Notes under the pieces: model-generated
Seen by the model: only the letters and a program-made list of their open reading frames with translations
What the model was told of the DNA's origin: nothing
The model's database searches: none
Part shown: in pieces, positions 3,003-27,642 of the stretch
Layout: every line of letters starts with the position of its first letter
How positions within the stretch are numbered: the first letter of the stretch is position 1
Source of the DNA: Alkaliphilus flagellatus
GTDB lineage: Bacteria; Bacillota; Clostridia; Peptostreptococcales; Natronincolaceae
Reading direction: 5' to 3'
Assembly (NCBI RefSeq): GCF_018919215.1
Contig: NZ_JAHLQK010000001.1
Coordinates: 92,430 to 156,429, forward strand
DNA: 64,000 nt
Program-made: the position numbers and the translations under genes

Positions 3003-3018
3003 AGAGGGGAGAATTTAT

Positions 3019-4377: not shown

Positions 4378-4412
4378 ATTTTAAAATATAAATTTAAATA
4401 ATTATTAAAAAT

Positions 4413-4452
4413 AATACAGAATGAGAAATCAAATCTCTTCTGTATTATTTTA
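4413..4452 (+). terminator. rho-independent terminator or attenuator between murP and mupG
   Basis: Stem AATACAGAA/TTCTGTATT followed by ATTTT. Confidence 0.5.
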
Positions 4453-4491
4453 TAATATAATAAAATCAAATTTCAAGGAGGTTTACTAATT

Positions 4492-5532: not shown

Positions 5533-5553
5533 CAGTAGAACGGAGTTGATAGA

Positions 5554-6405
5554 TTGAGCTCTATATTAAAAATGAGGGAAATATTTAATGAATTAACACC
5601 ATCAGAGAAAAAAATTGCTGATTATATATTCAACAATAGTGAAAATGTTTCAAAATTATCTACTGGAGAATTAGCGGAGGTATCAAACACTAGTGCTGCT
5701 AGTATTACTAGGTTTGCTCGAAAGCTAGGGTTTGATGGTTTTCAAGAGCTAAAAATAGATATAGCAAAGTCTGTAGCCATAAATGAAAATGCTGGAGATG
5801 ATAGTGTATACGAGGCAGTAAGGGTTCATGATAATACTAGAGAAATAATACAAAAAATTGCACTAGGTAATATAAAGGCAATAGAAGAAACTGTAAGTGT
5901 AATAGATGAGGAAGCAATTTTCCAATCTATTAAAGCTATAAATATGGCTAAAAAAATAAATATATATGGAGTAGGTGCATCAGGACTAGTAGGTTTAGAT
6001 TTACAATACAAACTTATGAGAATTAATAAACAGGCAAATATGTTTTTAGACAGTCATACACAATTGGCATCAGCTATTCATATAAAAAAAGGTGATGTTG
6101 CTATTGGTATTTCTCATAGCGGAAGAACATTAGAAGTATATAAGGCATTAGAGGCAGCAAAAAAACAAGGTGCAATAACTATTTCTATTACTAAATACGG
6201 TAAACATCCTATTAGTGACTTGGCAGATATTAATATATATACTGCCAGTGTAGAAAAACATTTACGAACTGGTGCAATTGCTTCTAGAATTGCCCAGCTA
6301 ACAGTAGTAGATATATTATTTATAGGTGTTGCTAAGGATAATTTTGGGGAAATTACAAAATATCTACAACATACCCGTGAAATTGTGGATGATCTTAAAT
6401 TATAG
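5554..6405 (+). CDS. murR: RpiR/MurR family transcriptional regulator (HTH_6 + SIS)
   Basis: N-terminal HTH (SEKKIADYIFNN...LSTGELAEVSNTSAASITRFARKLGF) and a C-terminal SIS domain. TTG start with a GGAG RBS. Confidence 0.75.
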   Translation: MSSILKMREIFNELTPSEKKIADYIFNNSENVSKLSTGELAEVSNTSAASITRFARKLGFDGFQELKIDIAKSVAINENAGDDSVYEAVRVHDNTREIIQKIALGNIKAIEETVSVIDEEAIFQSIKAINMAKKINIYGVGASGLVGLDLQYKLMRINKQANMFLDSHTQLASAIHIKKGDVAIGISHSGRTLEVYKALEAAKKQGAITISITKYGKHPISDLADINIYTASVEKHLRTGAIASRIAQLTVVDILFIGVAKDNFGEITKYLQHTREIVDDLKL

Positions 6406-6458
6406 AAGAAAATTATGTGGATAAATTATTTGTAATATAAAATAAGTAGGTGATTTAT

Positions 6459-7601
6459 ATGAAAGCATTGCACAATGGAAAGCTAATATTAGGTGATAGT
6501 ATTGATGAAGGAAAGATTTTATTATTTAATAATAAAATAGTAGAAATAATAGATGAAAGTCAACTAGTTAATCACACTAACTTAGAATTGATTGATGCAA
6601 AGGGAAATTACATCTCACCGGGGTTTATTGATATTCATATACATGGCTCTGGTGGATGCGATACTATGGATGGAAATATAGATGCCCTTAATATAATAAG
6701 TAAAACTATTATTAAGAATGGAACAACCGCTTTTTTACCTACAACCATGACTATGGATATAGAAGATATTCATAATGCTTTGGATGTAATTAGACAAGGA
6801 ATGAATATAGATATGGAAGGAGCACAGGTTTTAGGTGCTCATATGGAAGGACCATTTATTAATGCAAAGTTTAAAGGAGCACAAAATGAAACCTATGTAT
6901 TGTTACCCCATATTAAGTATTTAGAAGACTATTTAGATGTTATAAAAATTATTACAATGGCTCCTGAGGTTGAAGGTGGAATAGATTTCATAGATAGAGT
7001 ACTAGAGATGAAAGAAATTGTTTTATCCATTGGGCATACTAATGCTAGTTATGAAGAAGCAATGGAAGCCATAAAGAGAGGAATACGCCATGCTACTCAT
7101 ACCTTTAATGCAATGACTCCATTGCATCACAGAAATCCAGGAGTTGTTGGAGCAATATTCAATAGCAATATTACTTGTGAATTGATTGCTGATAAAATTC
7201 ATATTCATCCCGAATTGTTTAAGCTTCTAATGAATATAAAGGGTAAGGATAAACTGATTTTAATTACAGATGCTATGAGGGCAGGTTGTATGAAGGATGG
7301 AGAGTATGATTTGGGTGGACAAAAAGTTGTTGTTAATGGTGGCAGTGCAAGGCTTGAAAATGGCAGTTTAGCAGGGAGTATTTTAACAATAAATAAGGCT
7401 ATTAAAAACTTTAAAGAGGCTACTGGATTACCTTTAAATGAAGTTATACAGTTATCAACCCTAAATCCAGCTAAACTATTAAGTGTAGATAATGTTAAAG
7501 GAAGCTTAGATATAGGAAAAGATGCTGATATTATTGTATTTGATGAAAATATAGAAATACAAAAAGCATATGTACAAGGAGAAGAAAAATATAATAGTTA
7601 A
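6459..7601 (+). CDS. nagA: N-acetylglucosamine-6-phosphate deacetylase
   Basis: DIHIHGSGGCD metal-binding motif with amidohydrolase fold. The ATG at 6459 follows an AGTAGGTGA RBS, whereas the ORF-track GTG start at 6450 lies inside that RBS. Confidence 0.85.
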   Translation: MKALHNGKLILGDSIDEGKILLFNNKIVEIIDESQLVNHTNLELIDAKGNYISPGFIDIHIHGSGGCDTMDGNIDALNIISKTIIKNGTTAFLPTTMTMDIEDIHNALDVIRQGMNIDMEGAQVLGAHMEGPFINAKFKGAQNETYVLLPHIKYLEDYLDVIKIITMAPEVEGGIDFIDRVLEMKEIVLSIGHTNASYEEAMEAIKRGIRHATHTFNAMTPLHHRNPGVVGAIFNSNITCELIADKIHIHPELFKLLMNIKGKDKLILITDAMRAGCMKDGEYDLGGQKVVVNGGSARLENGSLAGSILTINKAIKNFKEATGLPLNEVIQLSTLNPAKLLSVDNVKGSLDIGKDADIIVFDENIEIQKAYVQGEEKYNS

Positions 7602-13300: not shown

Positions 13301-13731
13301 CTAATAAAGTATAAGTTTCTTAACTACTAAGCGATTTTTAAAGAGGTATAAGGTTAGCAATATTTTAAGCACTCAATTTAAAAGCTTAAGCTTTTGGATC
13401 GAGCGCATCATGAGTCGATGTAATAGCATCAGACAAATTTTTTTATTTTGTTATCCATGTTTCTAACGTACTTTCAGTTATTAGTATAACCATAGCTATC
13501 ATTCTTGACCTTTAAGAAAGGAGAGAGTAATTTGCTAATTGCAAATAAAGAACATGTACTATGAAAATGATAAAAATTAGGATTTGTAGTAAATGGTTGT
13601 TTAAAGCATCTTTTATTTAGATAATAAAGTATTTTCTATAGGTTTAAATGTAGTAATAAAAGCATTAAGCAACTGAAATTTCTAGAATATACGTGAAAAA
13701 ACTAAAATCAATATAATATGGAGTGATATTA

Positions 13732-14898
13732 ATGATTAATTATATACAAGAGGTAAATAAAAATGTAAATATACAAGAAGGAAAGCAGGCAATAGAAAAT
13801 ATATTGTTAAATATATATTTCAAAGAGGGTATTTCTAATAAAGAATTGTCAAGAAATAATCTTTTACCTATACCTGTTATTGTAGCCATAAAAAAAGAAT
13901 TTATTAAATATGGTTTGCTAGTTCAAGACAGTGGAGTAAGGTTAACTAAAGAAGGGTTAAGTTTCATAGAAAATAGGCTAGGCTTTCGTGGAATAAGAAA
14001 GGACCTATATATGAAATTATTAAAGGAAACATGGGAAGAAGAACAAGAGATTATTGAAGTTAAAAGGACATTAAGTGAAGTATTTATAAATCGACCATTG
14101 GCGGATGTTACTATAGATCAGTCAAAATGTACTTTAGATACAGCTGTAAAAAGAGCAGTGTTATGTCTACAAAATTACGCACTAGTAGGTAAAAATATTT
14201 TATGTATAGGGGACGACGATTTAGTAAGTATAGCTCTAGGTTTTTTACTTAAGAAGTTATTTGCTGATATAGAATACTGCAATACAACTATTTCTGTAAT
14301 GGATATTGATAATAGAGTCCTTACCTATATAAAAGATATTGCTGAGAAGGAAAGGCTCCCTATTAAATGTGTATGTTCAGATTTTAGAAAGCCATTATCA
14401 AAGGATTTTACAGAACAATTTGATTGTTTTTTTACTGATCCTCCTTATACTTTGGAGGGAATGAATTTATTTCTTTCAAGAGGGATTGAAGCTTTAAAAA
14501 AACAAAATGGTCTTCCTGTTTTTCTTTCTTATGCCCACAAGTCACCAGATTTTGAATTTGCTATGCAGCAATGCTTCCTAGATATGGGACTTATAGTTTC
14601 TAATGTGATGACTAGGTTCAATACCTATGAGGGGGCAGGAATAATTGGTAATACAGGGCAAATGATAGTTCTTAAAACTACTAGTAAGAGCAAGACATTA
14701 ATGCAAACTTTTTATCAAGGTCCACTTTATACTGGAGAACTAAAAAAAACAGTTCGCTTTTATAGGTGTAAGAGTTGTGGCCAAACTAATAAAGTAGGTC
14801 TTTCAGAGAAGATTAAAACTATAGAAGAACTAAAATCAAAAGGTTGTAATAAATGTAGTAATCAAATATTCAATCTAATTGATAAAAATAAGCTTTAA
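13732..14898 (+). CDS. DUF43/BpsA-like class-I SAM(dcSAM)-fold protein with N-terminal wHTH and C-terminal zinc ribbon (putative aminopropyl- or methyltransferase)
   Basis: N-terminal wHTH-like segment (GISNKELSRNNLLPIPVIVAIKKEFIKYGLL). GDDD loop (NILCIGDDDLVSIALG). A DPPY motif (CFFTDPPYT) about 70 aa later. C-terminal CKSCGQT...CNKCSN. The ATG at 13732 follows a GGAG RBS, and the ORF-track GTG at 13723 is probably not the true start. Confidence 0.45.
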   Translation: MINYIQEVNKNVNIQEGKQAIENILLNIYFKEGISNKELSRNNLLPIPVIVAIKKEFIKYGLLVQDSGVRLTKEGLSFIENRLGFRGIRKDLYMKLLKETWEEEQEIIEVKRTLSEVFINRPLADVTIDQSKCTLDTAVKRAVLCLQNYALVGKNILCIGDDDLVSIALGFLLKKLFADIEYCNTTISVMDIDNRVLTYIKDIAEKERLPIKCVCSDFRKPLSKDFTEQFDCFFTDPPYTLEGMNLFLSRGIEALKKQNGLPVFLSYAHKSPDFEFAMQQCFLDMGLIVSNVMTRFNTYEGAGIIGNTGQMIVLKTTSKSKTLMQTFYQGPLYTGELKKTVRFYRCKSCGQTNKVGLSEKIKTIEELKSKGCNKCSNQIFNLIDKNKL

Positions 14899-15088: not shown

Positions 15089-15877
15089 ATGAAAAGAATT
15101 TTATCAACGGCGTTACTATTAACTTTATCAAGTTCATTAATTGCTACACCTGTATTTGCGAATGAGGCAAATCAAAATGTAAAGCCAACCAATGTTTTAT
15201 ATGCAAATCAAGAAATGGATCTACATGTTCTAGAAGGTACGATTAAAGATATTAGGGAATTTGATTTAGTAGTAGAGGATTCTGAGGGAAAAGAATATGT
15301 TGTACCAATATTAGGCTTTAAAAATCTAGAGGAGTACCAAGCTGCTAATGTTCAAGTAGGACAAAAAGTCTTGTTAAAAGGAATAGATCTTTCTGAATCA
15401 AAACCTGGTATATTAGTAAAAGCAATCCATGCTGATGATACTATAAATCTTGATACTAATGATTTAGAAGTTATTGAAACAGAGGAATTTAGAGATAAGG
15501 TTATATCGAATTTAAAAATAACAAAACAACTAGATACAGAAGCTGTAACAGCAATAGATGAAGCTGATTTAGATGATATGAAAACTAAGAACAGTGGACC
15601 TATACGCATAAAATTAAAGTCAGATTTTGATGAAAATAAAGTACAAGAATTAAGGAACATAGATATACTTGAAAAGGGTAAAAACATATCTAGCGAGGAT
15701 CAAGTGCAATTTGGCAAAGCTGTAATGATAGATTCAGAAGGTACAGAAGGCATGGCTGTAAAAGTTACTCCATTTAGTGATAATATGTTTATACCTCAAG
15801 AAATTACTATTAATGAAGTAACTATAAAATTACCTATGATGACAAAAAGTATAGAAACTGCTAAAACCATAAATTAG
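15089..15877 (+). CDS. secreted hypothetical protein (signal peptide)
   Basis: MKRILSTALLLTLSSSLIATPVFANE has a signal peptide with an AxA cleavage site. The mature part is acidic. Confidence 0.5.
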   Translation: MKRILSTALLLTLSSSLIATPVFANEANQNVKPTNVLYANQEMDLHVLEGTIKDIREFDLVVEDSEGKEYVVPILGFKNLEEYQAANVQVGQKVLLKGIDLSESKPGILVKAIHADDTINLDTNDLEVIETEEFRDKVISNLKITKQLDTEAVTAIDEADLDDMKTKNSGPIRIKLKSDFDENKVQELRNIDILEKGKNISSEDQVQFGKAVMIDSEGTEGMAVKVTPFSDNMFIPQEITINEVTIKLPMMTKSIETAKTIN

Positions 15878-15959: not shown

Positions 15960-16640
15960 ATGTATAGAAATTTATTATTGATAGAAGATGAAAAAAGAAT
16001 GAGAGAAATATTAGTGGATTATTTCAAACGTGAAGATTTTACAATATTTGAAGCAGCTAATGGAAGAGAGGCATTAGAGATATTTGATACTAATAATATT
16101 CATTTGGTGATTCTAGATATAATGATACCAGAAATAGATGGATGGTCTGTATGTAAAAGGATTCGAAAGGAATCAGGAGTACCTATTATTATGCTAACTG
16201 CTAGATCTGATGAAGATGACAAGCTTATGGGATACGAGTTAGGGGCAGATGACTATATGACTAAGCCGTTTAGTCCAAGAGTATTAGTTGCAAAATCAAA
16301 AATGCTTCTTAAAAGAGCTGAAGGAAATGTAGTTAATGATAATGGTCTAATTTTATGTACAGATATTGAAGTTAATAAATTATCCCGTACGGTTAAAGTA
16401 GATAATGAGCTAATAGAACTTGCTCCAAAGGAATTTGATTTACTAGTGTATATGATTCAAAATAAAGAAATGGTATTAACAAGGGAGAATATCTTAAATC
16501 ATGTTTGGGGATATGACTACTTCGGAGATTTGCGTACTATTGATACTCATATAAAAAAGCTAAGATACAAACTAAAGGATAAGGCGAAATATATTAATAC
16601 CGTTAATAGAGTAGGCTATAAATTTGAGGTGAACGAATGA
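15960..16640 (+). CDS. OmpR-family response regulator
   Basis: Receiver domain (LLIEDE...DIMIPEIDG...) with winged-helix output (TIDTHIKKLRYKL...VGYKF). Confidence 0.85.
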   Translation: MYRNLLLIEDEKRMREILVDYFKREDFTIFEAANGREALEIFDTNNIHLVILDIMIPEIDGWSVCKRIRKESGVPIIMLTARSDEDDKLMGYELGADDYMTKPFSPRVLVAKSKMLLKRAEGNVVNDNGLILCTDIEVNKLSRTVKVDNELIELAPKEFDLLVYMIQNKEMVLTRENILNHVWGYDYFGDLRTIDTHIKKLRYKLKDKAKYINTVNRVGYKFEVNE

Positions 16641-18580
16641 AAAGAAATAGTATTACCTTTAAGCTTTTTATAATAACAACTATCTTTTTTATATTATTTT
16701 TAATGATTGTAGTAATTAGCCAGTCCATGTTTTTTGAAAAATTTTATATAAATCATAAAATTAGTAAATTGGAAAAAAATTTGGAGGGGTTTGCTAAAAA
16801 ATATTATAAAGAGGGTTGGGACCAAATAACAATAACGAAAAATATTAGTAATTTTATAAATAATAATAATGCTCAAATTGCAATATTAGATGATAAAGCT
16901 ATAACTAGGCATATTCCACTATTTAATTTAATTATTGAAACAGAAGATAAAAATGAAGTAATGGTGCCTTTAAACAATATGATTTTAATGGAGACAATAC
17001 AAAAATTAAACCTTTCAATAGGAGATCCAATCGTAATTAAAGGAGTTTATTCAAATAATGAGCACAATATTATATATCCATCTAGTATTCAAGGTAAGGG
17101 AAATAGTCTGGAAGTATTGGACTCAGTAGGATTAAACATAAAAGAAAACTTAGTGATTGACACTCCTGGAGTTACTGGAATCAGCGAGAGAGAAATACTC
17201 TCAGAAAACAATTCTATCCAAGTATTAAAAAAAACACCAACTAGTTTTGCCGTTAATATCAGTAACCTTAGGCAAGAAATGATCCGGATAGATATGCGAG
17301 AAATTAAAGGGAACATAGTAGAATTAAATTTTCCAACACAGAAGGATTTTATTATGTCATATAGAGAAGATATGTTTTGGTCTGCAATGGATAACTGGTT
17401 TTGGATTTCAAAGAGTGATGATTTTGCCATAGAAAATGAAGAAATAATTAGCTATAAATATAAAAGTCCTATGAATGGAATAGATAATATTGTTATGATA
17501 AAACCTATTTTCGATAAGGGCGAATTAAAGGAAATGGTATTTGCTATGTCTTCCCTACAGCCTGTAGGAGAGGCTATAGGAGTAATGAAGGACTATTATA
17601 TTTATGGATTTTTAGTGGCAATATTAATAATTATTATTTTGTCTTATATTTATTCTAAGCTTATAGCTAATCCCCTAATAAAAATAAATAATACAGCCAT
17701 AAAAATGGCAGAATTAGATTTTTCAGTAGAATGCAATGTTAAATCTAATGACGAAATTGGAAATCTAGCTAATAGTATAAATATATTGGCTTCAAATCTA
17801 AATAAAAATATGAAAACCCTGCAGGATACAAACGAGAAGCTTAGAGTTGAAATAGAAAAAGAACGGACCTTAGAGAGAATGAGAAAAGAATTTGTATCTA
17901 GTGCTTCACATGAATTAAAAACTCCATTAGGAATTATGAGAGGTTTTACGGAAGGACTTAAAGATGAGGTTGCAATTGAGAAAAAGGATTACTATATAGA
18001 TGTTATATTAGAAGAGATAGAAAAAATGGATACCCTTGTATTAGATATGTTAGATTTGTCTAAGCTTGAGTCTAAAGCATATCTATTGGCAGAGGAAAAC
18101 TTTTATATAGATTCACTGATGCAATTGGTGAAAAATAGATTTATCCAACAGTTAAAGGAAAAAGATATTAAAGTTAATTACATGTATAGTGCCGAAGAAA
18201 TTATGGTTAGGGCAGATAAAAAAAGAATAGAGCAGGTTATAACCAATATTATTAGTAACGCCATAAGACATACGAAATTAGAAGGTTTTATTAACATTGG
18301 CATAAGGAAATATAATGAAGATAAAATTTATATAACTGTTGAAAATGAAGGAGATAGGATTCAAGAAGACAAGTTAAATCATATTTGGGATAGATTTTAT
18401 CGTGTGGAGGAATCAAGAGATCGTGAATTTGGAGGAACAGGACTTGGATTATCAATTGTAAAGAATATTTTAGAACTTCATAATAGTGATTATGGTGTGA
18501 AGAATACAGAGAATGGTGTGATGCTGTATTTTACACTAAGATTAGCTGTTGAAAAAAATTATATGAAAGCCGATTTATAG
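16637..18580 (+). CDS. sensor histidine kinase with a large extracytoplasmic domain
   Basis: 2 TM segments flank a roughly 290-aa periplasmic domain. HAMP, HisKA H-box SASHELKTPL, and HATPase N/G boxes (GGTGLGLSIV). Overlaps the RR stop by 4 nt. Confidence 0.85.
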   Translation: MKRNSITFKLFIITTIFFILFLMIVVISQSMFFEKFYINHKISKLEKNLEGFAKKYYKEGWDQITITKNISNFINNNNAQIAILDDKAITRHIPLFNLIIETEDKNEVMVPLNNMILMETIQKLNLSIGDPIVIKGVYSNNEHNIIYPSSIQGKGNSLEVLDSVGLNIKENLVIDTPGVTGISEREILSENNSIQVLKKTPTSFAVNISNLRQEMIRIDMREIKGNIVELNFPTQKDFIMSYREDMFWSAMDNWFWISKSDDFAIENEEIISYKYKSPMNGIDNIVMIKPIFDKGELKEMVFAMSSLQPVGEAIGVMKDYYIYGFLVAILIIIILSYIYSKLIANPLIKINNTAIKMAELDFSVECNVKSNDEIGNLANSINILASNLNKNMKTLQDTNEKLRVEIEKERTLERMRKEFVSSASHELKTPLGIMRGFTEGLKDEVAIEKKDYYIDVILEEIEKMDTLVLDMLDLSKLESKAYLLAEENFYIDSLMQLVKNRFIQQLKEKDIKVNYMYSAEEIMVRADKKRIEQVITNIISNAIRHTKLEGFINIGIRKYNEDKIYITVENEGDRIQEDKLNHIWDRFYRVEESRDREFGGTGLGLSIVKNILELHNSDYGVKNTENGVMLYFTLRLAVEKNYMKADL

Positions 18581-18660
18581 GTATAGGAATTAGAGTCACT
18601 CTATTAGAGTAGGTTTTTTAGCAAAAATCCAAACTATAGAAGAATTACGAGGTGATAGGA

Positions 18661-20394
18661 ATGGAACAATTATTTTCATTTATTCAAAATGAATTGATTT
18701 ATTTTGTTCAAGCAATATCTGAAGTGTTAAAAGTGGACGTACAAATTATAGATTATCAATATAATCGTGTTGCAGGAACAGGATATTGGAAAAACAAAAT
18801 AAATGAAAATATAAAGGACTATGCTTATATTACTAAGAGAGTCTTTAGGACAGGAAAAAATGCAGTTATTGAGAATCCTAGAGAAAATTTAATTTGTAAT
18901 AATTGCAATAAGAAAGAGTTTTGTAAAGAAACAATGGAAATTTCAATTCCTATAAGATTTGACAAAAGAATTATTGGTACTATAGAATGTGTATGTATTA
19001 ATAAAGAACAGAAAGAACATATAGTAAATAATAAAGCCACATATATAGTATTTATTGAACAGATGGCTAAATTATTGGAATCAAGGGTAATTGAAGAACT
19101 GGAGAAAAGAAAGAAACTAAAGGTTTTGGATTTATTAGATAATGTTTTAAATAAACTTAACGAAGGTGTTATAACAATAGATAGTAATCATAATATTGTA
19201 AATGCTAATAATTATGCAAAACGGATATTAAAGATTGACAATCATTCAAGTAATAAGATAAGTATTAAGGAAACTGGAAATATGGTATTGAAACTACAGG
19301 AATATAAAATTGAATATAATAGTAGTACATTTATAGTAGTTGGAGAAAGATATGATGTTAATTATGGCGGTCAAGAAATTAATGAAGTAATTGTGTTTAC
19401 ATCTAAACAGACCCTTAAAGAACAATTTTTAGAATTATCAGGTTCTAAGCATAATATTGAATTAGATAAAATTGTTGGAAATTCAAGTATAGTAAAGGAG
19501 TTAAAAAGAAAAATTAATACTGTTGCCTCATCAGAATCAACAGTATTAATAACAGGTGAGAGTGGAACAGGAAAAGAATTAATAGCAAGAGCTCTTCATA
19601 ATGAAAGCAATCGTTCTAACAAGCCATTTGTTGCTGTCAATTGTGCTGCTATACCGGATACATTATTGGAAAGCGAACTTTTTGGATATAGTAAGGGAGC
19701 ATTTACAGGGGCAAATCCAAAGGGTAAAATTGGGAAAATTGAGTTGGCAGATGGAGGAACATTGTTTTTAGATGAAATTGGTGATATGCCTTTATATATG
19801 CAAGCTAAAATCTTGAGAGTAATTGAAGATAAAAGTATAGTTAAACTTGGAGATATTCAAGAGAAGTTACTTGATATTAGAATTGTAGCGGCTACAAATA
19901 AAAACTTAGAAGAAATGATTAGAGAAAATGTATTTAGAGGAGATTTGTATTACAGGTTAAATGTTATTCCAATAAATATTAAACCATTAAGAGAACGAAA
20001 AGAAGATATTAAAACTTTATTCCTTCATTTTCTAAAAAAATATGGGATTATTTTTGATAAGAAAGTTACAGTAATTTCTGAGGAAATTTGGAAATATTTA
20101 TATACATATGAGTGGCCAGGTAATATACGTGAGTTAGAAAATGTTGCAGAGTATAGTGTAAATATGTTAAATAGCAATGAAATTATTTCTGTTGAACATC
20201 TACCTAATAAGATATTAATTAATAAAAAATCTGACATAGAAATAAATACTAATTTGGATGACGTAGAGCGACAATTGATTAACGAATATTTAAATATCTA
20301 TGGTTTGAGCGTAGAAGGAAAGAAAAGAGTAGCCGAAAAATTAGGTGTAAGTATAGCTACTTTATATAGAAAAATTAAAAAGTATAATATATAG
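18661..20394 (+). CDS. sigma-54-dependent transcriptional activator (sensor domain + PAS + AAA+ + HTH_8)
   Basis: GESGTGKE Walker A, GAFTGA sigma-54 contact motif, and a C-terminal Fis-type HTH (RVAEKLGVSIATLYRKIKK). The ATG at 18661 follows AGGTGATAGGA. Confidence 0.85.
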   Translation: MEQLFSFIQNELIYFVQAISEVLKVDVQIIDYQYNRVAGTGYWKNKINENIKDYAYITKRVFRTGKNAVIENPRENLICNNCNKKEFCKETMEISIPIRFDKRIIGTIECVCINKEQKEHIVNNKATYIVFIEQMAKLLESRVIEELEKRKKLKVLDLLDNVLNKLNEGVITIDSNHNIVNANNYAKRILKIDNHSSNKISIKETGNMVLKLQEYKIEYNSSTFIVVGERYDVNYGGQEINEVIVFTSKQTLKEQFLELSGSKHNIELDKIVGNSSIVKELKRKINTVASSESTVLITGESGTGKELIARALHNESNRSNKPFVAVNCAAIPDTLLESELFGYSKGAFTGANPKGKIGKIELADGGTLFLDEIGDMPLYMQAKILRVIEDKSIVKLGDIQEKLLDIRIVAATNKNLEEMIRENVFRGDLYYRLNVIPINIKPLRERKEDIKTLFLHFLKKYGIIFDKKVTVISEEIWKYLYTYEWPGNIRELENVAEYSVNMLNSNEIISVEHLPNKILINKKSDIEINTNLDDVERQLINEYLNIYGLSVEGKKRVAEKLGVSIATLYRKIKKYNI

Positions 20395-20404
20395 AATAGA
20401 TAAA

Positions 20405-20441
20405 TTATCAAAAATGATAAATTTATCAAAAATGATAAATT
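20405..20441 (+). promoter_or_regulatory. tandem direct repeat (2 x about 18 bp) each containing the palindrome TATCAaaaaTGATA; candidate EBP upstream activating sequence
   Basis: TTATCAAAAATGATAAATT repeats twice, about 140 bp upstream of the -24/-12 element. Confidence 0.45.
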
Positions 20442-20579
20442 GTTAATTACAACAGAAATCATGTATATATGGTATTTTAATAAATAATAATTCTCAATAA
20501 TGATAAAATCTTAAAAATTAGAATGTGCTAATATGGTTTTAAATTAGCATAGAATAAGACTCCATATGAAATTTTATAT

Positions 20580-20596
20580 TTGGCATAATATTTGCT
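20580..20596 (+). promoter_or_regulatory. sigma-54 (-24/-12) promoter TGGCAT-N5-TTGCT
   Basis: The GG to GC spacing matches the TGGCAC-N5-TTGCW consensus exactly. It lies 45 nt upstream of the ATG at 20641, next to an EBP gene. Confidence 0.6.
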
Positions 20597-20640
20597 TATT
20601 AATATTGCGTAACCAATTTTATAAGTGAAGGAGAGATAAT

Positions 20641-21822
20641 ATGCCAGTAAAGCAAGTATTATTATTAGGTAACGAAGATTTATACAAAATATCTAAAGAA
20701 GTTAGATATGAAGAGATTAGAGATGTTAAACACATTATTAAAGATTTACACGATACCTTAATGGATTTTAGAGAAAAATATGGATATGGAAGAGCAATAG
20801 CTGCTCCTCAACTGGGGTATTTTAAAAGAATCATCTACATGAACATTAATGATTGTGAAACCATCTTTATTAATCCTAAATTAGAGTTTTTAGATAATGA
20901 AATGATAGAAGTATGGGATGATTGTATGTCTTTTCCAAATTTGCTCGTGAAAGTAAAGAGGTACAATCATTGCAAAATATACTATAAAGATTTGGATTGG
21001 AATGATAATGTAATAGAAGTAGAAGGAGATATTGCTGAATTATTACAGCATGAATACGATCATTTAAAAGGAGTATTAGCTATTTCAAAGGCAATAGACG
21101 ATCATTCTTTTAGACTTAAAACCGTAGAAACTAAACTGTCAAAAAAAATTGGGATATTAGGTGGAATAAGTCATGAGTCAACTATTAAGTATTATGAGCT
21201 TATATTAAAGAAATATTATGAGCTTAAAGGGGATTATTATTATCCAGAAATAATTATATACAGCTTAGACTTTCAGAAATTTACTGACTTTGAGGATAAT
21301 GGGGATAAAGAGGGCTATATTAAGTATATAATGGAAGGCATGTATTCACTAGAAAATAGTGGGGCAGATTTTATAATTATGTCTGCAAATTCACCACATT
21401 CAGTATATGATGAAGTAAAGAATCTTACTAAACTACCTATGATCAGCATTGTAGAGGCTGTTGGAGAAAAGGCAAAGGAAAAAGGATTGAAAAAGATTTT
21501 GCTGTTAGGTATAAAATATACAATGGAAAGTGGTTTTTATGAAAATTACTTAAATCAGTTCGGAATAGATGTAATTGTTCCATCTGAAGATGAAAGAGTA
21601 TTAATCAATGATATTATTTTTGATGAGTTGGCTATAGGTATATTTCATAAGAATAGCAAAGAAAGGCTTATTAATATTATTAAGAAGTATGATGTAGAAG
21701 GTGTAATATTAGGATGCACAGAATTACCACTAATTATTTCTGAAGCTGATCTTGAAATAGAAGTTTTAAACACTGTAGAACTTCATGTAAATAAAATATT
21801 AAGGTATTCTCTTGGAATGTAA
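20641..21822 (+). CDS. fusion protein: peptide-deformylase-like domain (aa 1-165) + Asp/Glu/hydantoin-racemase-fold domain (aa 168-393)
   Basis: PDF motifs GRAIAAPQLG (I), DDCMSFP (II, Cys retained) and QHEYDHLKG (III, HExxH). Racemase motifs GILGGISHESTIKYY and ILGCTELPL. The first catalytic Cys position reads MSANSPH, with Ala instead of Cys. Confidence 0.7.
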   Translation: MPVKQVLLLGNEDLYKISKEVRYEEIRDVKHIIKDLHDTLMDFREKYGYGRAIAAPQLGYFKRIIYMNINDCETIFINPKLEFLDNEMIEVWDDCMSFPNLLVKVKRYNHCKIYYKDLDWNDNVIEVEGDIAELLQHEYDHLKGVLAISKAIDDHSFRLKTVETKLSKKIGILGGISHESTIKYYELILKKYYELKGDYYYPEIIIYSLDFQKFTDFEDNGDKEGYIKYIMEGMYSLENSGADFIIMSANSPHSVYDEVKNLTKLPMISIVEAVGEKAKEKGLKKILLLGIKYTMESGFYENYLNQFGIDVIVPSEDERVLINDIIFDELAIGIFHKNSKERLINIIKKYDVEGVILGCTELPLIISEADLEIEVLNTVELHVNKILRYSLGM

Positions 21823-21883
21823 TTAAAGTAGACGCTCGTAATCAGTGCGTGGTAACGACGAATCCCGACTAGTGCAGTATAGA

Positions 21884-21928
21884 AAGCCCTATTTTTCCTT
21901 GATTTATAAGGTGAGGTAGGGCTTTTAT
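21884..21928 (+). terminator. probable terminator
   Basis: Stem AAGCCCTA/TAGGGCTT with a long loop, then TTTTAT. Confidence 0.35.
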
Positions 21929-22108
21929 ATGTACAATGCGGCTTCTTGTCGTAGTTTTAAAGAAGTATATTTACACTTCTTTATTAAATTTGTTTACGAT
22001 TTATATTCTTGATTTTTCCATTATAACTTAGTATCATTGTACTTGTGGATATTTTAACTATCTAAATATCCAAGCTTATAATATTATTTCAGCGAAGGGG
22101 ATAGTCAT

Positions 22109-22726
22109 ATGTTAAAAGCAAAAAAAAGATTAATGATTTTATTAAGTATGTTTTTAGTATTTTCAATTGTAGGCTGTAGCGAGAAAGGACCTACCTTTGA
22201 ACCACTGAATATAAATGTGAATGGTACCGAAATTCTACTTGGACAGTCAACATTACAGACATTTATTGATGCAGGCTATAGAGTAACCTTAGACAAAAGC
22301 TTAGAAGAAGATATTGCGGGAGAAGAAATGCCAACTATGACCTATGATGTAGCTGCTTATGTGAGCAAGGACAATAGCATAGTAGGTATGGTAAGTTTTT
22401 TAAATAATACTAAGGATACTATTCCTTTGGAAGAATGTATTGTTAATGAATATGAAATAGTATATAAAGATCCTTCCTGGAGTGGAAGCTATGATACAGA
22501 CAATATTTTAGTAGATAATGTTAACCTTAAAGGAATGAAGCTAGAAGATGTAAAAAAAGCATTTGAAGAAAAAATGGAAGACTATAAGGAATTTACAAAT
22601 CCAGATGGAAGTGTTGCTATTATATCATTTGATATAAATAAGGTTTATATGAGTGTAAGTTTTGATTATGAAACGAAAGAAGTAAGAACTGTTAAAATGA
22701 AAGTTTTCTTATCACATTTTGAATAA
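22109..22726 (+). CDS. lipoprotein, hypothetical
   Basis: Signal peptide ending in the lipobox IVGC-SEK. 205 aa. Confidence 0.5.
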   Translation: MLKAKKRLMILLSMFLVFSIVGCSEKGPTFEPLNINVNGTEILLGQSTLQTFIDAGYRVTLDKSLEEDIAGEEMPTMTYDVAAYVSKDNSIVGMVSFLNNTKDTIPLEECIVNEYEIVYKDPSWSGSYDTDNILVDNVNLKGMKLEDVKKAFEEKMEDYKEFTNPDGSVAIISFDINKVYMSVSFDYETKEVRTVKMKVFLSHFE

Positions 22727-22825: not shown

Positions 22826-22947
22826 AATTTAAAGTATTATGCCTGTGTATATTCAAAAGACCTAGATTTCATAAAATGATCATTTTTCTGATATAATATG
22901 TAATAAGTAACTAAATAGCTTTAAGCAAGTTGTATTGGAGGATAGAT

Positions 22948-23616
22948 ATGCAAAAAATTATTATAATAGAGGATACTGAAACCATAAGAGAAGAACTTAA
23001 AATATTTTTATCTAAATATGGTTACGAGGTTGATGCTCCAGATGATTTTAGCAATATAGTTGAGTATATATATAGATCCAATGCTGATCTAATTTTATTA
23101 GATATAAATTTACCTGTTTTTGATGGATATCATATATGTAGAGAAGTTAGAAAAAATTCGGATGTACCAATAATAGTAGTTACAAGTAGAGATAGTGAAA
23201 CAGATGAACTTATGAGTATGAATTTAGGTGCAGATGATTTTATCACGAAACCTTATAACACACAAATACTTTTAGCTCGTATTTCAGCAGTTTTAAAGAG
23301 AACTTCCAAAAGCAATCCTAGTGATGTATTAGAGTACAATGATATAAAGTTAAATCTATTAAATGGTAGTATTATCTATAAAGGAAATACAGAACAATTA
23401 ACTAAGAATGAAATAAAAATACTTTCTTATCTCATAAAGTATAAGGGAACTATAGTATCAAGAGAAGCATTAATGGAACACTTATGGAATTCAGATGTTT
23501 TTATTGATGATAATACATTGTCTGTAAATGTAACAAGATTAAGAAAAACACTTGAAGATATAGGTGTAAAAGATGTAATAGAGACGAGGAGAGGTTTGGG
23601 ATATATAATGCCATGA
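22948..23616 (+). CDS. OmpR-family response regulator, BceR-like
   Basis: Receiver domain with winged helix. Located upstream of a BceS-type kinase and a BceAB-type ABC transporter. The ATG at 22948 follows a GGAGG RBS, so the ORF-track TTG at 22930 is less likely. Confidence 0.8.
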   Translation: MQKIIIIEDTETIREELKIFLSKYGYEVDAPDDFSNIVEYIYRSNADLILLDINLPVFDGYHICREVRKNSDVPIIVVTSRDSETDELMSMNLGADDFITKPYNTQILLARISAVLKRTSKSNPSDVLEYNDIKLNLLNGSIIYKGNTEQLTKNEIKILSYLIKYKGTIVSREALMEHLWNSDVFIDDNTLSVNVTRLRKTLEDIGVKDVIETRRGLGYIMP

Positions 23617-24626
23617 GTATAAAAGAGTATTTAAAAGAAAGATTTTTGTTCATGTTTATAAATTTCATAGGATTTTTTATTTTGGCTTTTGTGCTGGCTA
23701 TACTAGACATAAAAACTATTGTCATATTTTTAATTTTTATTATATGGTTTTTACCTCTAATAATCTATATTAGTATAGAGTTTTTTAAGCATAAAAAATA
23801 TTATAATAATATGGAAGAAACATTACAAAGTCTTGATAAAAAGTATTTATTGCCAGAAATCATGGAAAAACCAGACTTTTTAGAAGGAAAACTTTTTTAC
23901 GATATACTAAAAGTATGTAATAAAGAAATGCATGAGCATGTAAATTATTATAAAAATCTTCAGTCCGAATATAGAGAATATATTGAGACCTGGGTTCATG
24001 AAATTAAAACACCTATTTCATCAAGTATGTTGATTATAGAGAATAATAAAAGCCCTATTATGGATAATATAGGTCAAGAAATAAAGAAAGTAGAAGGGTT
24101 TGTAGAACAGGCATTATACTATTCAAGAAGCAATGATGTTAGTAAAGATTATATAATAAAGAAGTTTGATTTATCAACAGCTGTAAATAATGCTATTAGA
24201 AGAAATTCTAAGGATTTTATAGGTAAAAGGATAAATTTACAATTAGACGAAATAGATGCTGTTGTATATAGTGATATAAAGTGGGTACAATTTATACTCA
24301 ATCAAATCATAAGTAATTCAATCAAGTATATTAAGCCTAAAGAAGGTAATATAAGAATATATTCAACCAGCAATAAAAATAATGTAGTACTTACAATTCA
24401 AGATAATGGAATAGGAATTTCAGAGAAGGATATTAATAGAGTTTTTGAAAAAGGCTTTACAGGAGAGCATGGAAGAAAATACAATGCATCTACAGGTATG
24501 GGATTATATCTTTGCAGAAAACTTTGTGACAAGCTAGGTTTAGAAATAAATATTGCATCTGAATTAGGAGTAGGAACAAAGGTTAATATAATATTTCCGT
24601 TAAGTAAGTTTAATTTAGGGATTTGA
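23613..24626 (+). CDS. intramembrane-sensing histidine kinase, BceS-like
   Basis: Two TM helices with almost no extracellular loop. H-box region ETWVHEIKTPI and HATPase (GIGISEKD...GMGLYLC). Overlaps the RR stop. Confidence 0.8.
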   Translation: MSIKEYLKERFLFMFINFIGFFILAFVLAILDIKTIVIFLIFIIWFLPLIIYISIEFFKHKKYYNNMEETLQSLDKKYLLPEIMEKPDFLEGKLFYDILKVCNKEMHEHVNYYKNLQSEYREYIETWVHEIKTPISSSMLIIENNKSPIMDNIGQEIKKVEGFVEQALYYSRSNDVSKDYIIKKFDLSTAVNNAIRRNSKDFIGKRINLQLDEIDAVVYSDIKWVQFILNQIISNSIKYIKPKEGNIRIYSTSNKNNVVLTIQDNGIGISEKDINRVFEKGFTGEHGRKYNASTGMGLYLCRKLCDKLGLEINIASELGVGTKVNIIFPLSKFNLGI

Positions 24627-24627
24627 A

Positions 24628-24660
24628 AAGTGTGAGTTGAAATACTTACACTTTTTTATT
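24628..24660 (+). terminator. hairpin terminator (imperfect)
   Basis: AAAGTGTGAGT...ACTTACACTTT followed by TTT. One mismatch in the stem. Confidence 0.4.
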
Positions 24661-24854
24661 TAAGTTTTTTGATGAATGTGTAATAGGATTTGTATCAATG
24701 GGAAATGTATAGCAAAAGATTATCTTACGAAAATGCAACTTTAATGAAAGCTAATTCGATATGTGATCTCTTAATAATTCAATATAATAACATCATAAGA
24801 CATATTCAAAAAATAATTAGCAAATTTCAATAAAGTTGAATGGAGGATATAGAT

Positions 24855-25622
24855 ATGAAAAATATATTAAGTGTAGAGAACATTGAAAAGTATTATGGCA
24901 AAAAAGAAATCATAACTAAGGCATTAGATGGTATAAGCTTTAAGGTAGATAAAGCAGAATTTGTTGGAATAATGGGACCATCAGGAAGTGGTAAAACTAC
25001 ATTGCTTAACTGTATTGCAACAATTGACAACGTAACAACTGGTCAGATTATTGTAAATGACCAAAATATTACAAAGATAAAATCTAAAAAATTAGATAAA
25101 TTTAGAAGAGATGAGTTAGGGTTTATATTTCAAGATTTCAATTTGCTTGACACATTAACTGGTTATGAAAATATAGCTTTAGCTTTAACAATACAAGAAA
25201 GAAACCCAAAAGAAATAGATAGTTTAATAAGGAAGGTTGCAGAAACGCTTAATATTTTAGACATTTTAAATAAATACCCATACCAAATGTCGGGTGGACA
25301 GCAGCAAAGGGTAGCTTGTGCTAGAGCAATAGTTACTAATCCATCATTAATATTAGCAGATGAACCTACAGGTGCTTTAGATTCTAAATCTTCAAGATTA
25401 CTACTAGAATCTTTTGAGAGGCTAAATAAAGAGTTGGAGGCTACTATATTACTTGTAACCCATGATGCTTTTACTGCAAGCTATGCTAATAGGATATTAT
25501 TTATAAAAGACGGTAAAATATTTAATGAGTTAGTTAGGGGAAATGATTCTAGAAAAGAATTTTTTAATAGAATTATCGAAGTAATGACGCTTTTGGGGGG
25601 TGACGTTAATAATGTATTTTAA
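24855..25622 (+). CDS. ABC transporter ATP-binding protein, BceA-like
   Basis: Walker A GPSGSGKTT, signature MSGGQQQRVA, Walker B ILADEPTGALD. ATG at 24855 after a GGAGG RBS. Confidence 0.8.
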   Translation: MKNILSVENIEKYYGKKEIITKALDGISFKVDKAEFVGIMGPSGSGKTTLLNCIATIDNVTTGQIIVNDQNITKIKSKKLDKFRRDELGFIFQDFNLLDTLTGYENIALALTIQERNPKEIDSLIRKVAETLNILDILNKYPYQMSGGQQQRVACARAIVTNPSLILADEPTGALDSKSSRLLLESFERLNKELEATILLVTHDAFTASYANRILFIKDGKIFNELVRGNDSRKEFFNRIIEVMTLLGGDVNNVF

Positions 25623-27642
25623 TATAGCTATTAATAATATAAAAAAGAGTTTTAAAGATTATGCAATATATTTCATAACTCTTACATTAGCAGTATGTAT
25701 ATTTTACAATTTTAACTCAATGAATTCTCAAACAGTAATGCAAGATATGAATAAAATAGAAGTATTAGTTAAGTTAATATCCTATATATCTATATTTATT
25801 TCAGTTGTTTTTGGTGGATTAGTTATATACGCTAATAATGCTCTATTAAAGAAACGTAAAAAAGAGTTTGGAATATATACAACTTTAGGTATGTCAAAAA
25901 CAAAAGTATCTAAAATATTAATTTATGAAACCTTTGTAGTAGGGATGATATCACTTGTTACAGGATTATTACTAGGAATAGTATTATCACAAGGAATTTC
26001 AGTAATTACAGGGAAATTGTTTGAATTTAATATGGAGGAATATAAATTTATTATATCTACCAACGCAATTGGCAAAACTTTTATATATTTTGGCGCAATG
26101 TTTATTTTAGTTATGATATTTAATACAGTAGTTGTGTCCAAGCATAAATTAATTGATATGATAAATGCCTCAAAGAAAAATGAAGAAATAAAAACTAGAA
26201 ATCCCATAGTTTCAGTTATAATATTCATTTTATCTTTGGCTGTTTTATCAAGAGCTTACTATTTAGGGTGGAAGTTTGCACCTACTCCTAAAAATATTAA
26301 TTTCCCCTTATCTATAATATGGGGAAGTGCTGGTACTCTATTGTTTTTCTTTGGATTAGCTGGATTTATATTAGTTATACTGAAAAAAAATCCACAAATA
26401 TATTTAAAAAGGTTAAATATATTTGTTATAAAACAGTTTAATAATAAAATAAATACAAACTTTATATCCATGGCAATAATATGTCTTATGCTATTTGTAA
26501 CTATAGTAATGTCATCATCAAGCTTAAGTATTAAGACTAAATTAGAAGAAAGATTAGAAAATTTAACACCTTTTGATGCTAATATTGAACTAAATATTAG
26601 AAGTGACCAACAAGAAGTACGAGATATAGAAAAGGCTTTGAAAACAGTAGATTTCCAATTGAGAGAATCTTATAAGTATGCTGTATTAGATGTTTATGGC
26701 ACAGACATTAAAGTATCTAATTTATTAAATGAGTATGCAAATAAGGATTTAAAAGCTAGATTAAAAAATTATGTTGGAAATTTAAAAACTATAGGAATAT
26801 CACAATACAATGAAATGAAAAAGTTAAAAGGTGAGTCAACAATAGAATTAAAAGCAAATGAAGCTTTATTGCTAACAAGGGATAATGATGAAAAACAAGC
26901 AATAAACAATCTAATAAAGGATAAAAATGGGATAGATATTAATGGGAAGAAATATACTCTCATTAATGGCAAGAAATACACTCTCAAAACAGATATAGAC
27001 TTAAAAGAGATTGAGTATAATTTAATTGCAATAGTACCTGATTATGCTGTAGAAAATATGACTAAATATTATTCAACAATGTATATGAAAAATATAGATG
27101 AAATGGCTAAAGAAGACCTTGAAGAACAGGTTAAAGAACTAAAACAAAAATTTTCGAATTTAGATTATGATTACGATAAAATTTTAAATAAATATGGCTT
27201 TATTTTACGTGCAGAAACTAGAACTCAAGTATATAATGAGACTAAAAATGCTATAGGAACAAATTTATATATAGGAATATACTTGGGGTTTGTATTTTTA
27301 ATAGCAAGTGCAGCAGTATTAGCAATTCAACAATTAACAGAAGCAAGTGATAGTGTAAATAGATATAAGACACTCAAAAAAATTGGGGCATCAGATCATA
27401 TGATTAATAAAACTATATTTACTCAAATTCTAATACACTTTATGGCACCTCTAATGTTAGCACTAGTGCATTCTATAGTAGCATTAGTAATTATAGGTAG
27501 ATTGTCAAAATATGCAGGCTTATTGGCCATTTTCAAACTTGGACCGACTATATTTATAACTGGCATTGTAGTTATTGTAATATATGGTTCCTATCTATAT
27601 GCTGCTTATACTGGATATAAAAATATAGTTAAAAGTAGTTAA
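25612..27642 (+). CDS. ABC transporter permease, BceB-like (FtsX-type, 10 TM, large extracellular loop)
   Basis: About 677 aa. TM bundle 1-4, a roughly 200-aa extracellular domain, TM 5-10 and a C-terminal FtsX region. Overlaps the bceA stop. Confidence 0.8.
   Translation: MYFNIAINNIKKSFKDYAIYFITLTLAVCIFYNFNSMNSQTVMQDMNKIEVLVKLISYISIFISVVFGGLVIYANNALLKKRKKEFGIYTTLGMSKTKVSKILIYETFVVGMISLVTGLLLGIVLSQGISVITGKLFEFNMEEYKFIISTNAIGKTFIYFGAMFILVMIFNTVVVSKHKLIDMINASKKNEEIKTRNPIVSVIIFILSLAVLSRAYYLGWKFAPTPKNINFPLSIIWGSAGTLLFFFGLAGFILVILKKNPQIYLKRLNIFVIKQFNNKINTNFISMAIICLMLFVTIVMSSSSLSIKTKLEERLENLTPFDANIELNIRSDQQEVRDIEKALKTVDFQLRESYKYAVLDVYGTDIKVSNLLNEYANKDLKARLKNYVGNLKTIGISQYNEMKKLKGESTIELKANEALLLTRDNDEKQAINNLIKDKNGIDINGKKYTLINGKKYTLKTDIDLKEIEYNLIAIVPDYAVENMTKYYSTMYMKNIDEMAKEDLEEQVKELKQKFSNLDYDYDKILNKYGFILRAETRTQVYNETKNAIGTNLYIGIYLGFVFLIASAAVLAIQQLTEASDSVNRYKTLKKIGASDHMINKTIFTQILIHFMAPLMLALVHSIVALVIIGRLSKYAGLLAIFKLGPTIFITGIVVIVIYGSYLYAAYTGYKNIVKSS

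Follow-up and report, generated by a model that had tools for sequence, protein, structure and literature searches.

The window analysed here is a 64,000-nucleotide stretch of the Alkaliphilus flagellatus genome (contig NZ_JAHLQK010000001.1, positions 92,430 to 156,429 of the forward strand). It carries two consecutive genes on the + strand. The first encodes a σ54 enhancer-binding protein (hereafter the activator), and the second, the fusion gene, encodes a protein that joins a peptide deformylase (PDF)-like domain to an Asp/Glu-racemase domain. The 246 bp between the two genes hold three palindromes that are candidate upstream activator sequences (UAS), a -24/-12 promoter element and a ribosome-binding site, and a terminator-like hairpin lies beyond the fusion gene (Table 1). 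The enzyme architecture is rare and is built from two poorly understood subfamilies.

Table 1. Features of the activator-fusion locus, in window coordinates
Feature	Position	Strand or distance	Basis
σ54 enhancer-binding protein gene, 577 amino acids	18661-20394	+	Pfam, NCBIfam, orthologues
UAS site 1, perfect 16-bp palindrome TTATCAAAAATGATAA	20405-20420	-236 from ATG	Exact match, conserved in L001, L002 and L016
UAS site 2, identical palindrome TTATCAAAAATGATAA, 18 bp further	20423-20438	-218 from ATG	Exact match, conserved
UAS site 3, degenerate palindrome TTCTCAATAATGATAA, 2 mismatches	20491-20506	-150 from ATG	Mismatch scan
Predicted σ54 promoter TGGCATAATATTTGCT (TGGCAT-N5-TTGCT)	20581-20596	+	GG at 20582-20583, GC at 20594-20595
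Ribosome-binding site GAAGGAGAG	20627-20635	+	Sequence; AAGGAGAGATA conserved in four-way alignment
Fusion gene, PDF-like and racemase domains, 393 amino acids	20641-21822	+	Pfam, homologues, AlphaFold2
PDF-like domain, residues 4-152	20650-21096	+	Pep_deformylase (PF01327), 123 bits, cutoff 22.8
Asp/Glu-racemase domain, residues 173-385	21157-21795	+	Asp_Glu_race (PF01177), 119 bits, cutoff 31
Terminator-like hairpin, then U-rich tail UUUUAUAU	21872-21934	+	RNAfold

The activator open reading frame (ORF) begins at 18652 or 18661 and is read on the same strand as the fusion gene. The ATG at 18661 is the likely start, because the 577-residue orthologues open with MEQL; among them is the Gottschalkia purinilytica protein, which is 85% identical. 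An earlier note on this DNA, made from the sequence alone, had described the activator as a sensor domain plus PAS, an AAA+ module with a GAFTGA loop and an HTH_8 domain, ending at 20394. The second half of that description holds. The protein matches Sigma54_activat (PF00158; 238 bits against a cutoff of 20.2), AAA_lid_14 and, at its C terminus, HTH_8 (30.6 bits against a cutoff of 22), and its translation contains the Walker-type motifs GESGTGKE and LFLDEIGD as well as GYSKGAFTGA, which includes the GAFTGA loop. For the N-terminal 265 residues, however, Pfam gave only sub-threshold matches to GAF_2 and PAS in three orthologues, and a homologue search with this sensor region (residues 1-265) returned no matches. 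The N-terminal part (18661-19100) contains, within its GAF-like region, a conserved cysteine cluster of the form C-x2-C-x5-C...C(-x-C), kept in the 45%-identical Clostridium orthologue, which could be a metal, Fe-S or redox-sensing site. The best NCBIfam model for the activator is PrdR (NF041552), at 364 bits against an equivalog cutoff of 795. We therefore regard the protein as a PrdR-like paralogue and not as PrdR; its apparent target is the fusion gene and not a prd operon. The activator-fusion module has no match among known plasmids, where just the AAA+ region resembles other activators, and the GC content is uniform, giving no signal of a compositional island.

Where the earlier note had seen a tandem repeat (20405-20441) there are indeed two exact palindromes, and a third copy that its author had not noticed lies further downstream, at site 3. 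Palindromes with up to two mismatches occur six times in the window against 0.93 expected, and none of 100 shuffled sequences reached six. The -24/-12 element was likewise found in the place first proposed for it. It is the sole match to TGGCAY-N5-TTGCW in the 64 kb (0.12 expected; 12 of 100 shuffles held at least one), it is conserved in orthologous loci, and it ends 44 nt before the ATG at 20641, which puts it at about -60. No convincing σ70-type promoter was found on the + strand between the repeats and this ATG, which is preceded by a strong ribosome-binding site. Beyond the stop codon at 21822, the hairpin folds with -29.3 kcal/mol (RNAfold, z = -6.1; 0 of 200 shuffles fold equally well) and, since it is followed by a U-rich tail, the unit appears to be monocistronic. 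A consensus terminator scan overlooked this hairpin because its loop is long. The geometry of the module, with the promoter at -60 and the UAS at -150, -218 and -236, fits tabulated Clostridiales σ54 regulons, whose promoters fall between -57 and -95 and whose UAS fall between -150 and -250 (PMC6615313 and its supplement). The regulon tables and supplement of that study list no deformylase or racemase target, and the regulon of the fusion gene is absent from them.

The activator-fusion pair recurs in Alkaliphilus sp. B6464, Gottschalkia purinilytica and Tissierella simiarum (L016). In B6464 the module has the same flanks as in the window, and in Gottschalkia the flanks are entirely different, with an MFS transporter gene and a gene resembling that of elongation factor G upstream and a YbaK/tRNA_edit gene downstream. 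This bears on a further suggestion of the earlier note, that the two-component system upstream of the activator (15960-18580) might feed into the same circuit. The two-component system adjoins the module in the close relative B6464 only and not in Gottschalkia, and we reject the link because the adjacency is not conserved (the ORFs upstream of the Tissierella module were clustered but not individually annotated). What is conserved is the regulatory DNA. In a four-way alignment of the window with loci L001, L002 and L016, the palindromes TT[A/C]TCA-N4-TGATAA, the element TTGGCAT-N5-TTGC and the ribosome-binding site are conserved, whereas the spacers diverge. UAS site 3 and its flanks are identical in the window, L001 and L002; the Tissierella copy has a 1-bp gap within it. 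The σ54 element is present in L001, L002, L003, L016 and L020.

The last of these loci, L020 from Clostridium sp. OS1-26, encodes an activator that is 45% identical overall and about 34% identical in the N-terminal sensor region. On the 3' side of this activator lie an identical 16-mer, TTATCAAAAATGATAA, an adjoining near-identical palindrome, CTATCATTTTTGATAA, and a third site, TTATCATCTTTGATAA, and downstream of these three palindromic sites is the promoter element TGGCATAAATTTTGCT. Because the same palindrome recurs behind so divergent an activator, TTATCA-N4-TGATAA is very probably the operator of this activator family, and as sequence evidence the palindromes and promoter of L020 make the strongest single case for a regulatory unit. 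The L020 activator ORF itself seems to carry a frameshift in a run of A residues close to its 3' end, so that the called ORF is without the helix-turn-helix domain.

Taken together, these features strongly predict that the fusion gene depends on σ54 in vivo. We consider it quite probable that the regulatory part works as follows. The activator would bind the three TT[A/C]TCA-N4-TGATAA palindromes, which lie upstream of the start codon at distances of 150-236 bp. In response to an inducing signal, whose existence we infer, it would spend ATP to remodel and open the σ54 holoenzyme at the TGGCAT-N5-TTGCT element (20581-20596), and the output would be a monocistronic mRNA for the 393-amino-acid enzyme.

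The earlier note had described this enzyme as a fusion of the two domains and had known of no characterised enzyme with such an architecture. Both domains score above their Pfam cutoffs and are thus supported by the profile search, and the fusion is rare. A search of 5.8 billion sequences yielded about 20 clusters, formed at 90% identity, that contain both domains in full. Their proteins are 45-96% identical to that of the window and come from isolates and metagenomes, Alkaliphilus sp. B6464 and Gottschalkia purinilytica being among the sources. A single full-length match (P0018) was found among 1.84 billion representatives at 50% identity, and the literature searched held no description of a deformylase-racemase fusion. 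An AlphaFold2 model built from 91 sequences (mean predicted local distance difference test score 92.8; predicted template modelling (TM) score 0.62) predicts that both domains are confidently folded, but not their mutual orientation.

One alternative is an assembly or annotation artefact, in which the loss of a stop codon or a frameshift has made two separate genes look like one. One NCBI record (P0011, Alkaliphilus sp. MSJ-5, 100% identical) does annotate just a 228-amino-acid racemase part (21136-21822). The start annotated in that record is a CTG (21136) without a ribosome-binding site, so that it is likely a start-site miscall. The ORF, moreover, is continuous and conserved across the clusters, and the linker and both domains align gap-free across the fusion family. 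We therefore take the fusion to be genuine; the artefact explanation is left with a negligible chance and, in its frameshift form, is effectively refuted by ORF conservation. A consequence of the P0011 miscall is that the deformylase half is left unannotated and the fusion is hidden from annotation-based searches.

The three PDF signature boxes mentioned in the earlier note are present in the N-terminal half, with the catalytic residues kept (motif I, GRAIAAPQ; motif II, WDDCMS; motif III, QHEYDH), but motifs I and II are non-canonical, so that the description fits loosely. In an alignment to E. coli Def, the canonical GxGxAAxQ and EGCLS correspond to GRAIAAPQ and DDCMS. In E. coli numbering, Ile44 is changed to Arg, Gly45 to Ala, Glu88-Gly89 to Asp-Asp and Leu91 to Met. 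In 17 fusions and 39 standalone relatives, the motif I and II substitutions are invariant or nearly so, and the metal ligands Cys95, His137 and His141, the catalytic Glu138 and Gln57 are invariant. The TIGR00079 equivalog model gives this half 82.4 bits, below its cutoff of 103.95. Foldseek matched the modelled N-terminal half to bacterial PDFs with a TM score of about 0.9 at 25-30% identity. The modelled domain ends shortly past the HExxH helix and is without the long C-terminal helix of type 1B enzymes. This alone proves nothing, because a short phage PDF without the helix is active in vivo (PMC5591237). Published criteria for type 3 PDFs are motif I and II substitutions, presence in Archaea and the lack of a solved structure (PMC12690207, PMC5591237); judged by its sequence against these criteria, the PDF-like domain can be called type-3-like.

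The subfamily with these altered motifs has at least 589 confirmed loci in species-representative genomes, where the standalone proteins are about 160-170 amino acids long. Among the loci listed are members from Clostridia, Desulfobacterales, Ignavibacteria and Bacteroidota, and the subfamily is also found in the Asgard lineages Loki-, Jord-, Hermod-, Thor- and Freyarchaeota. Because initiator Met-tRNA is not formylated in Archaea and the subfamily has archaeal members, a co-translational deformylase role is unlikely for it. We can thus agree with the earlier view that the gene is not a housekeeping def: the TIGR00079 score is below cutoff, motifs I and II are altered, there are Asgard members, and the fusions are accompanied by dedicated regulators of three kinds (see below). 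The invariant Arg and Asp stand at the positions of Ile44 and Gly89, where a canonical PDF meets the backbone of its substrate and the S1' pocket; the two residues would suit a substrate with a free carboxylate.

There are two other ways to read the PDF-like half. One is that it is an accessory but genuine PDF whose substrates are fMet-proteins, nascent or already released, and which comes into play during a particular stress or when PDF inhibitors are present, a role that has been proposed for other accessory PDFs; its fusion to a racemase would be unrelated to this role. We consider this unlikely, given the occurrence of the subfamily in several Asgard lineages, which do not formylate initiator Met, the invariance of Ile44 to Arg and Gly89 to Asp at substrate-contacting positions, the sub-cutoff TIGR00079 score, and the finding that adjacency or fusion to racemases is recurrent and arose independently (see below). 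It would, on the other hand, account for the full set of catalytic residues and for the convergent fmt gene that adjoins the locus of P0020, the most divergent fusion; accessory PDFs are common and often adaptive (PMC12690207), and the short phage enzyme noted above works without the C-terminal helix (PMC5591237). The other reading is that the PDF-like domain is inactive, as in the type 3 proteins of S. aureus and of S. pneumoniae, and serves solely as a module for binding, regulation or oligomerisation attached to a broad-spectrum racemase that is inducible. In favour of this, motifs I and II carry substitutions like those of the type 3 PDFs that are weak or inactive, and in one genome (P0011) NCBI annotated the racemase half only. 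Yet the metal ligands, catalytic Glu and Gln are invariant in all 56 sampled bacterial and archaeal sequences, which argues for selection on catalysis, and the domain is widespread as a standalone protein of about 165 residues. An inactive domain is for these reasons improbable.

The C-terminal half scores 179 bits against the TIGR00035 'amino acid racemase' model (cutoff 93.1). It does not have the two catalytic cysteines of the family: the first is replaced by Ala249 (SANSPH) and the second, Cys359 (GCTELP), is kept. Cys359 is invariant in 17 fusions and 35 standalone racemases, and the same Ala/Cys state is found in 35 relatives. By Foldseek, the modelled half is closest in fold to PH1733 (PDB 2zsk; TM score 0.90, 43% identity). 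Members of the superfamily with one cysteine include decarboxylases, for example arylmalonate decarboxylase. The presence of Ala249 in place of the first cysteine could therefore mean that the domain is not a racemase at all but a one-base isomerase, a decarboxylase or a ligand-binding domain, with a non-amino-acid N-formyl compound as the substrate, and PH1733 was inactive on Asp and Glu in the account of Kita 2009 given in PMC12838360. We give this a slim chance, in view of the TIGR00035 score, the MocR-type regulators, sensors of amino compounds, that accompany some fusions, and the Halocola RacX enzyme, which has the same Ala/Cys pair and is an active, bidirectional, broad-spectrum racemase (PMC12838360). 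The E. coli homologue YgeA/EcL-DER has Thr/Cys at the catalytic positions (PMC12838360). Given the TIGR00035 score and the precedent of RacX, we place little weight on a maleate-isomerase- or arylmalonate-decarboxylase-like reading of the one-cysteine domain.

Fusions that are not preceded by a σ54 activator have other regulators: a divergent LysR-type gene at L004 and L009, and a divergent MocR/GntR-aminotransferase-type gene at L048 and L081. At fusion loci with Pfam annotation, the neighbours have no obvious functional link to the fusion. Dedicated regulators combined with unrelated neighbours are a pattern typical of substrate-inducible catabolic or detoxifying enzymes. Clostridium aromativorans has two PDF-like genes in one genome (L035, L048): one stands alone, and the other is fused to a racemase and is accompanied by a divergent MocR-type regulator. 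The subfamily is thus accessory and can be duplicated.

The two enzyme families are coupled beyond the fusions themselves. In a metagenome scan, a co-directional PDF-like gene lies within 1.5 kb upstream of the racemase gene in 12 of the 59 related racemase loci that had at least 600 bp of upstream sequence. Of these 12 cases, one is a fusion, in six the two genes adjoin directly, and in five a single 419-amino-acid gene separates the pair. Most of the adjacent PDF-like genes belong to a second clade, with the motifs GRA/GAAPQ, DSCFS and QHE[IL]DH. P0020 has a PDF half that shares 53-60% identity with this adjacent-gene clade but only 37-43% with the other fusions; the fusion therefore arose at least twice. 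The PDF-like domain is also found fused to VOC/glyoxalase, GNAT and GDSL esterase domains, and the racemase domain to GNAT (in both orders) and VOC; these other fusions of the two subfamilies are P0264, P0278, P0386, P0337, P0299, P0364 and P0098.

Among 80 PDF-like loci, the recurring neighbours are MocR regulators (six loci) and RimJ-like GNATs directly downstream (six loci). In a metagenome-assembled genome (MAG) of Desulfobacteraceae (L093, 2161-8101), the gene order is PALP, Asp_Glu_race, PNPOx-like, Beta_elim_lyase, TehB-like methyltransferase, PDF-like and Cys_Met_Meta_PP. The racemase there is 32% identical to that of the window, the Cys_Met_Meta_PP protein is methionine gamma-lyase-like, and the cluster is amino-acid-catabolic; two further Desulfobacteraceae MAGs (L043 and L072) share with it a core of Beta_elim_lyase, PDF-like and Cys_Met_Meta_PP genes. 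On the racemase side, an MFS transporter of about 750 amino acids lies 3' of the gene in 15 of 80 racemase loci.

Some further observations concern the coupled loci. The protein encoded between the PDF-like and racemase genes at L104, L108, L117, L118 and L123 is a membrane/coiled-coil protein of 419-422 amino acids that belongs to no Pfam family, and at L108, L117, L118 and L123 a convergent Ntn-hydrolase gene lies downstream (of the CBAH/AAT family, as annotated in L117). At L097 (5456-10334), an adjacent PDF-like/racemase pair is followed by genes for adenylosuccinate lyase, serine hydroxymethyltransferase and FolD, which are one-carbon- or formate-related.

The L020 locus (2733-6504) brings in a third enzyme. 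Here the predicted σ54 promoter is followed by a gene for a 349-amino-acid protein of the D-aminoacyl-tRNA deacylase family (PF04414, 104 bits), and a standalone PDF-like gene with its own σA-like extended -10 promoter lies directly behind it. In Clostridium aciditolerans (L018, 4381-6504), the orthologous activator gene is broken up into two ORFs and has probably become a pseudogene. That locus has no deacylase-like gene, no UAS and no σ54 promoter, and its PDF-like gene retains the same σA-like upstream intergenic sequence as in L020.

The arrangement in L020 raises the possibility that the system serves chiral proofreading. In this scheme the PDF-like enzyme would take the blocking group off D-aminoacyl-tRNA (N-formylated or aldehyde-modified) or related esters; the D-amino acid, once set free by a DTD2-type deacylase, would be recycled by the racemase. 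Besides the PF04414 gene that adjoins a PDF-like gene behind a homologous activator with the same UAS, the YbaK/tRNA_edit gene next to the Gottschalkia module and the existence of a fusion between a PDF-like domain and a GDSL esterase fit this scheme. We nevertheless give it a very slim chance: the DTD2-like link was seen in one of 95 loci only, the L020 PDF-like gene has a promoter of its own, there is no tRNA-binding feature, and the MFS transporters downstream of related racemases (at least one of them behind a PDF-racemase pair) fit imported small molecules better.

The explanation that we favour is that the locus is a self-contained, inducible two-gene module for a non-housekeeping enzyme that deblocks and racemises its substrate; taken as a whole, we would give it an even chance of being right. 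Its enzymatic part, in which a metallo-amidase deblocks an N-blocked amino acid or short peptide and an Ala/Cys racemase inverts the same amino acid, is read from the sequences and is tentative, with a chance somewhat short of even. In this scheme, whose two activities, substrate and reaction order we infer, the N-terminal half would act on a free, non-ribosomal substrate, for example an N-formyl amino acid or a short N-blocked peptide, and take off its formyl group (or another small acyl group). The C-terminal half, a one-cysteine racemase of the PH1733/RacX/YgeA type, would then invert the α-carbon of the same amino-acid moiety. Overall, an amino acid that is N-blocked, D-configured or both would yield formate and an L-amino acid that the cell can use, in salvage or in detoxification.

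Several observations weigh against this explanation. On the regulatory side, (i) the consensus scan found no terminator between the activator gene and the fusion gene, so that read-through from the former is possible, (ii) no ORF with an RpoN box (rpoN or sigL) lies in the window, the presence of rpoN in the host being assumed from other Alkaliphilus genomes (sigL is recorded in two other Alkaliphilus species; PMC6615313), and (iii) the separate σA-like promoter in L020 makes it uncertain whether the PDF-like and deacylase-like genes there are co-regulated or co-transcribed. On the enzymatic side, (iv) the type 3 PDFs studied so far have been weak or inactive (PMC12690207, PMC5591237), (v) PH1733, the structural neighbour of the racemase half, had no Asp or Glu racemase activity in the cited account of it, (vi) three of the 80 PDF-like loci are fusions and 76 are standalone without a racemase nearby, (vii) clustering of the neighbours of these 80 loci gave no universal partner, the commonest family occurring at nine, and (viii) the predicted TM score of the model gives no confident inter-domain geometry, so that there is no evidence for channelling between the two halves.

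A broader proposal, which we think unlikely to be right, is that the whole type-3-like subfamily (GRAIAAPQ/DDCMS/QHEYDH) is a non-translation enzyme of an unrecognised system for N-blocked D-amino acids, of which the Alkaliphilus module would be the σ54-inducible, fused form. If this were true, D-aminoacyl compounds would be unblocked, released and inverted back by the subfamily in concert with GNATs, DTD2-type deacylases and one-cysteine racemases, and the substrates might include N-formyl or aldehyde-modified D-aminoacyl-tRNA.

Type 3 and accessory PDFs are a long-standing puzzle, being present in organisms without protein formylation, weak or inactive on standard substrates, and without a structure. 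The locus described here offers a testable handle on the role of type-3-like PDFs, as it combines intact catalytic residues, recurrent coupling to racemases and dedicated regulators that appear to respond to a ligand; in combination these features point to a small molecule as the substrate, for example an N-formyl or D-amino acid. The promoter and activator could be used as a pair for inducer screening. The locus also adds a σ54 regulon, with the operator TTATCA-N4-TGATAA, that is missing from the published Clostridiales regulon tables, and it may help to explain one-cysteine 'aspartate racemase homologues' such as PH1733.

Other genes of the window were also noted. At 13723-14898 is a gene for a 391-amino-acid protein with a BpsA_C (branched-chain polyamine synthase C-terminal) domain and a Cys-rich, zinc-ribbon-like C-terminal tail, and this gene is kept upstream of the two-component system in Alkaliphilus sp. 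B6464. Genes for an OmpR-type response regulator, a histidine kinase, an ABC ATPase and a 680-amino-acid FtsX-type permease lie in a row at 22930-27642, a layout that we take to resemble a BceRS-BceAB module for sensing and detoxifying peptide antibiotics. Two ORFs, at 22109-22726 (205 amino acids) and 15089-15877 (262 amino acids), are predicted to encode secreted or lipoprotein-like products, belong to no Pfam family and occupy the same positions in B6464.

Compared with known systems, the PDF-like domain shares with bacterial Def (EC 3.5.1.88, E. coli type 1B) the PF01327 fold, at a TM score of about 0.9, the Cys/His/His ligands and the Glu and Gln residues. It differs in its altered motifs I and II, the absence of the long C-terminal helix and the sub-cutoff TIGR00079 score, and its gene is not linked to fmt, stands behind a predicted σ54 promoter and is fused to a racemase. 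It is like the type 3 PDFs of Archaea, trypanosomatids and some bacteria in its motif I and II substitutions, archaeal occurrence and lack of a solved structure, a likeness by criteria and not by placement in a tree. Against the model NF006670/PRK09218 (136 amino acids), however, it scores 62.6 bits with a cutoff of 162, and in contrast to type 3 PDFs its subfamily strictly conserves all catalytic residues. The racemase domain resembles PH1733 and Halocola RacX, which show the same Ala-for-Cys substitution with the second Cys kept, whereas YgeA has Thr; unlike the window domain, none of the three is fused to a deformylase, and none is reported to be under σ54 control.

Pairs of N-acylamino-acid racemase and aminoacylase, enzymes of the enolase superfamily and of the M20/amidohydrolases, are used for dynamic kinetic resolution. 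The proposed logic of the fusion would be similar, in that deacylation and racemisation together yield one free enantiomer; the families are unrelated and the resemblance is functional only. The sole other deformylase gene fusion found in the literature searched is the def-fmt gene of Exiguobacterium, which pairs the formylation cycle's two enzymes and can complement a def-fmt mutant of E. coli (PMC12690207), whereas the fusion in the window joins a PDF-like domain to a racemase. For its control, the closest parallel is with the clostridial PrdR-type σ54 regulons (Nie et al. 2019, PMC6615313), in which the activator likewise adjoins its target, several palindromic UAS lie at -150 to -250, a TTGGCAT-N5-TTGC promoter lies near -60 and the target is amino-acid-related. 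Unlike in PrdR regulons, the UAS of the window is TTATCA-N4-TGATAA and not TGT-N10-12-ACA, and the activator is not PrdR. The locus is not a new kind of system; its regulatory design is that of a standard clostridial σ54 unit, in which the operator and the target are newly defined.

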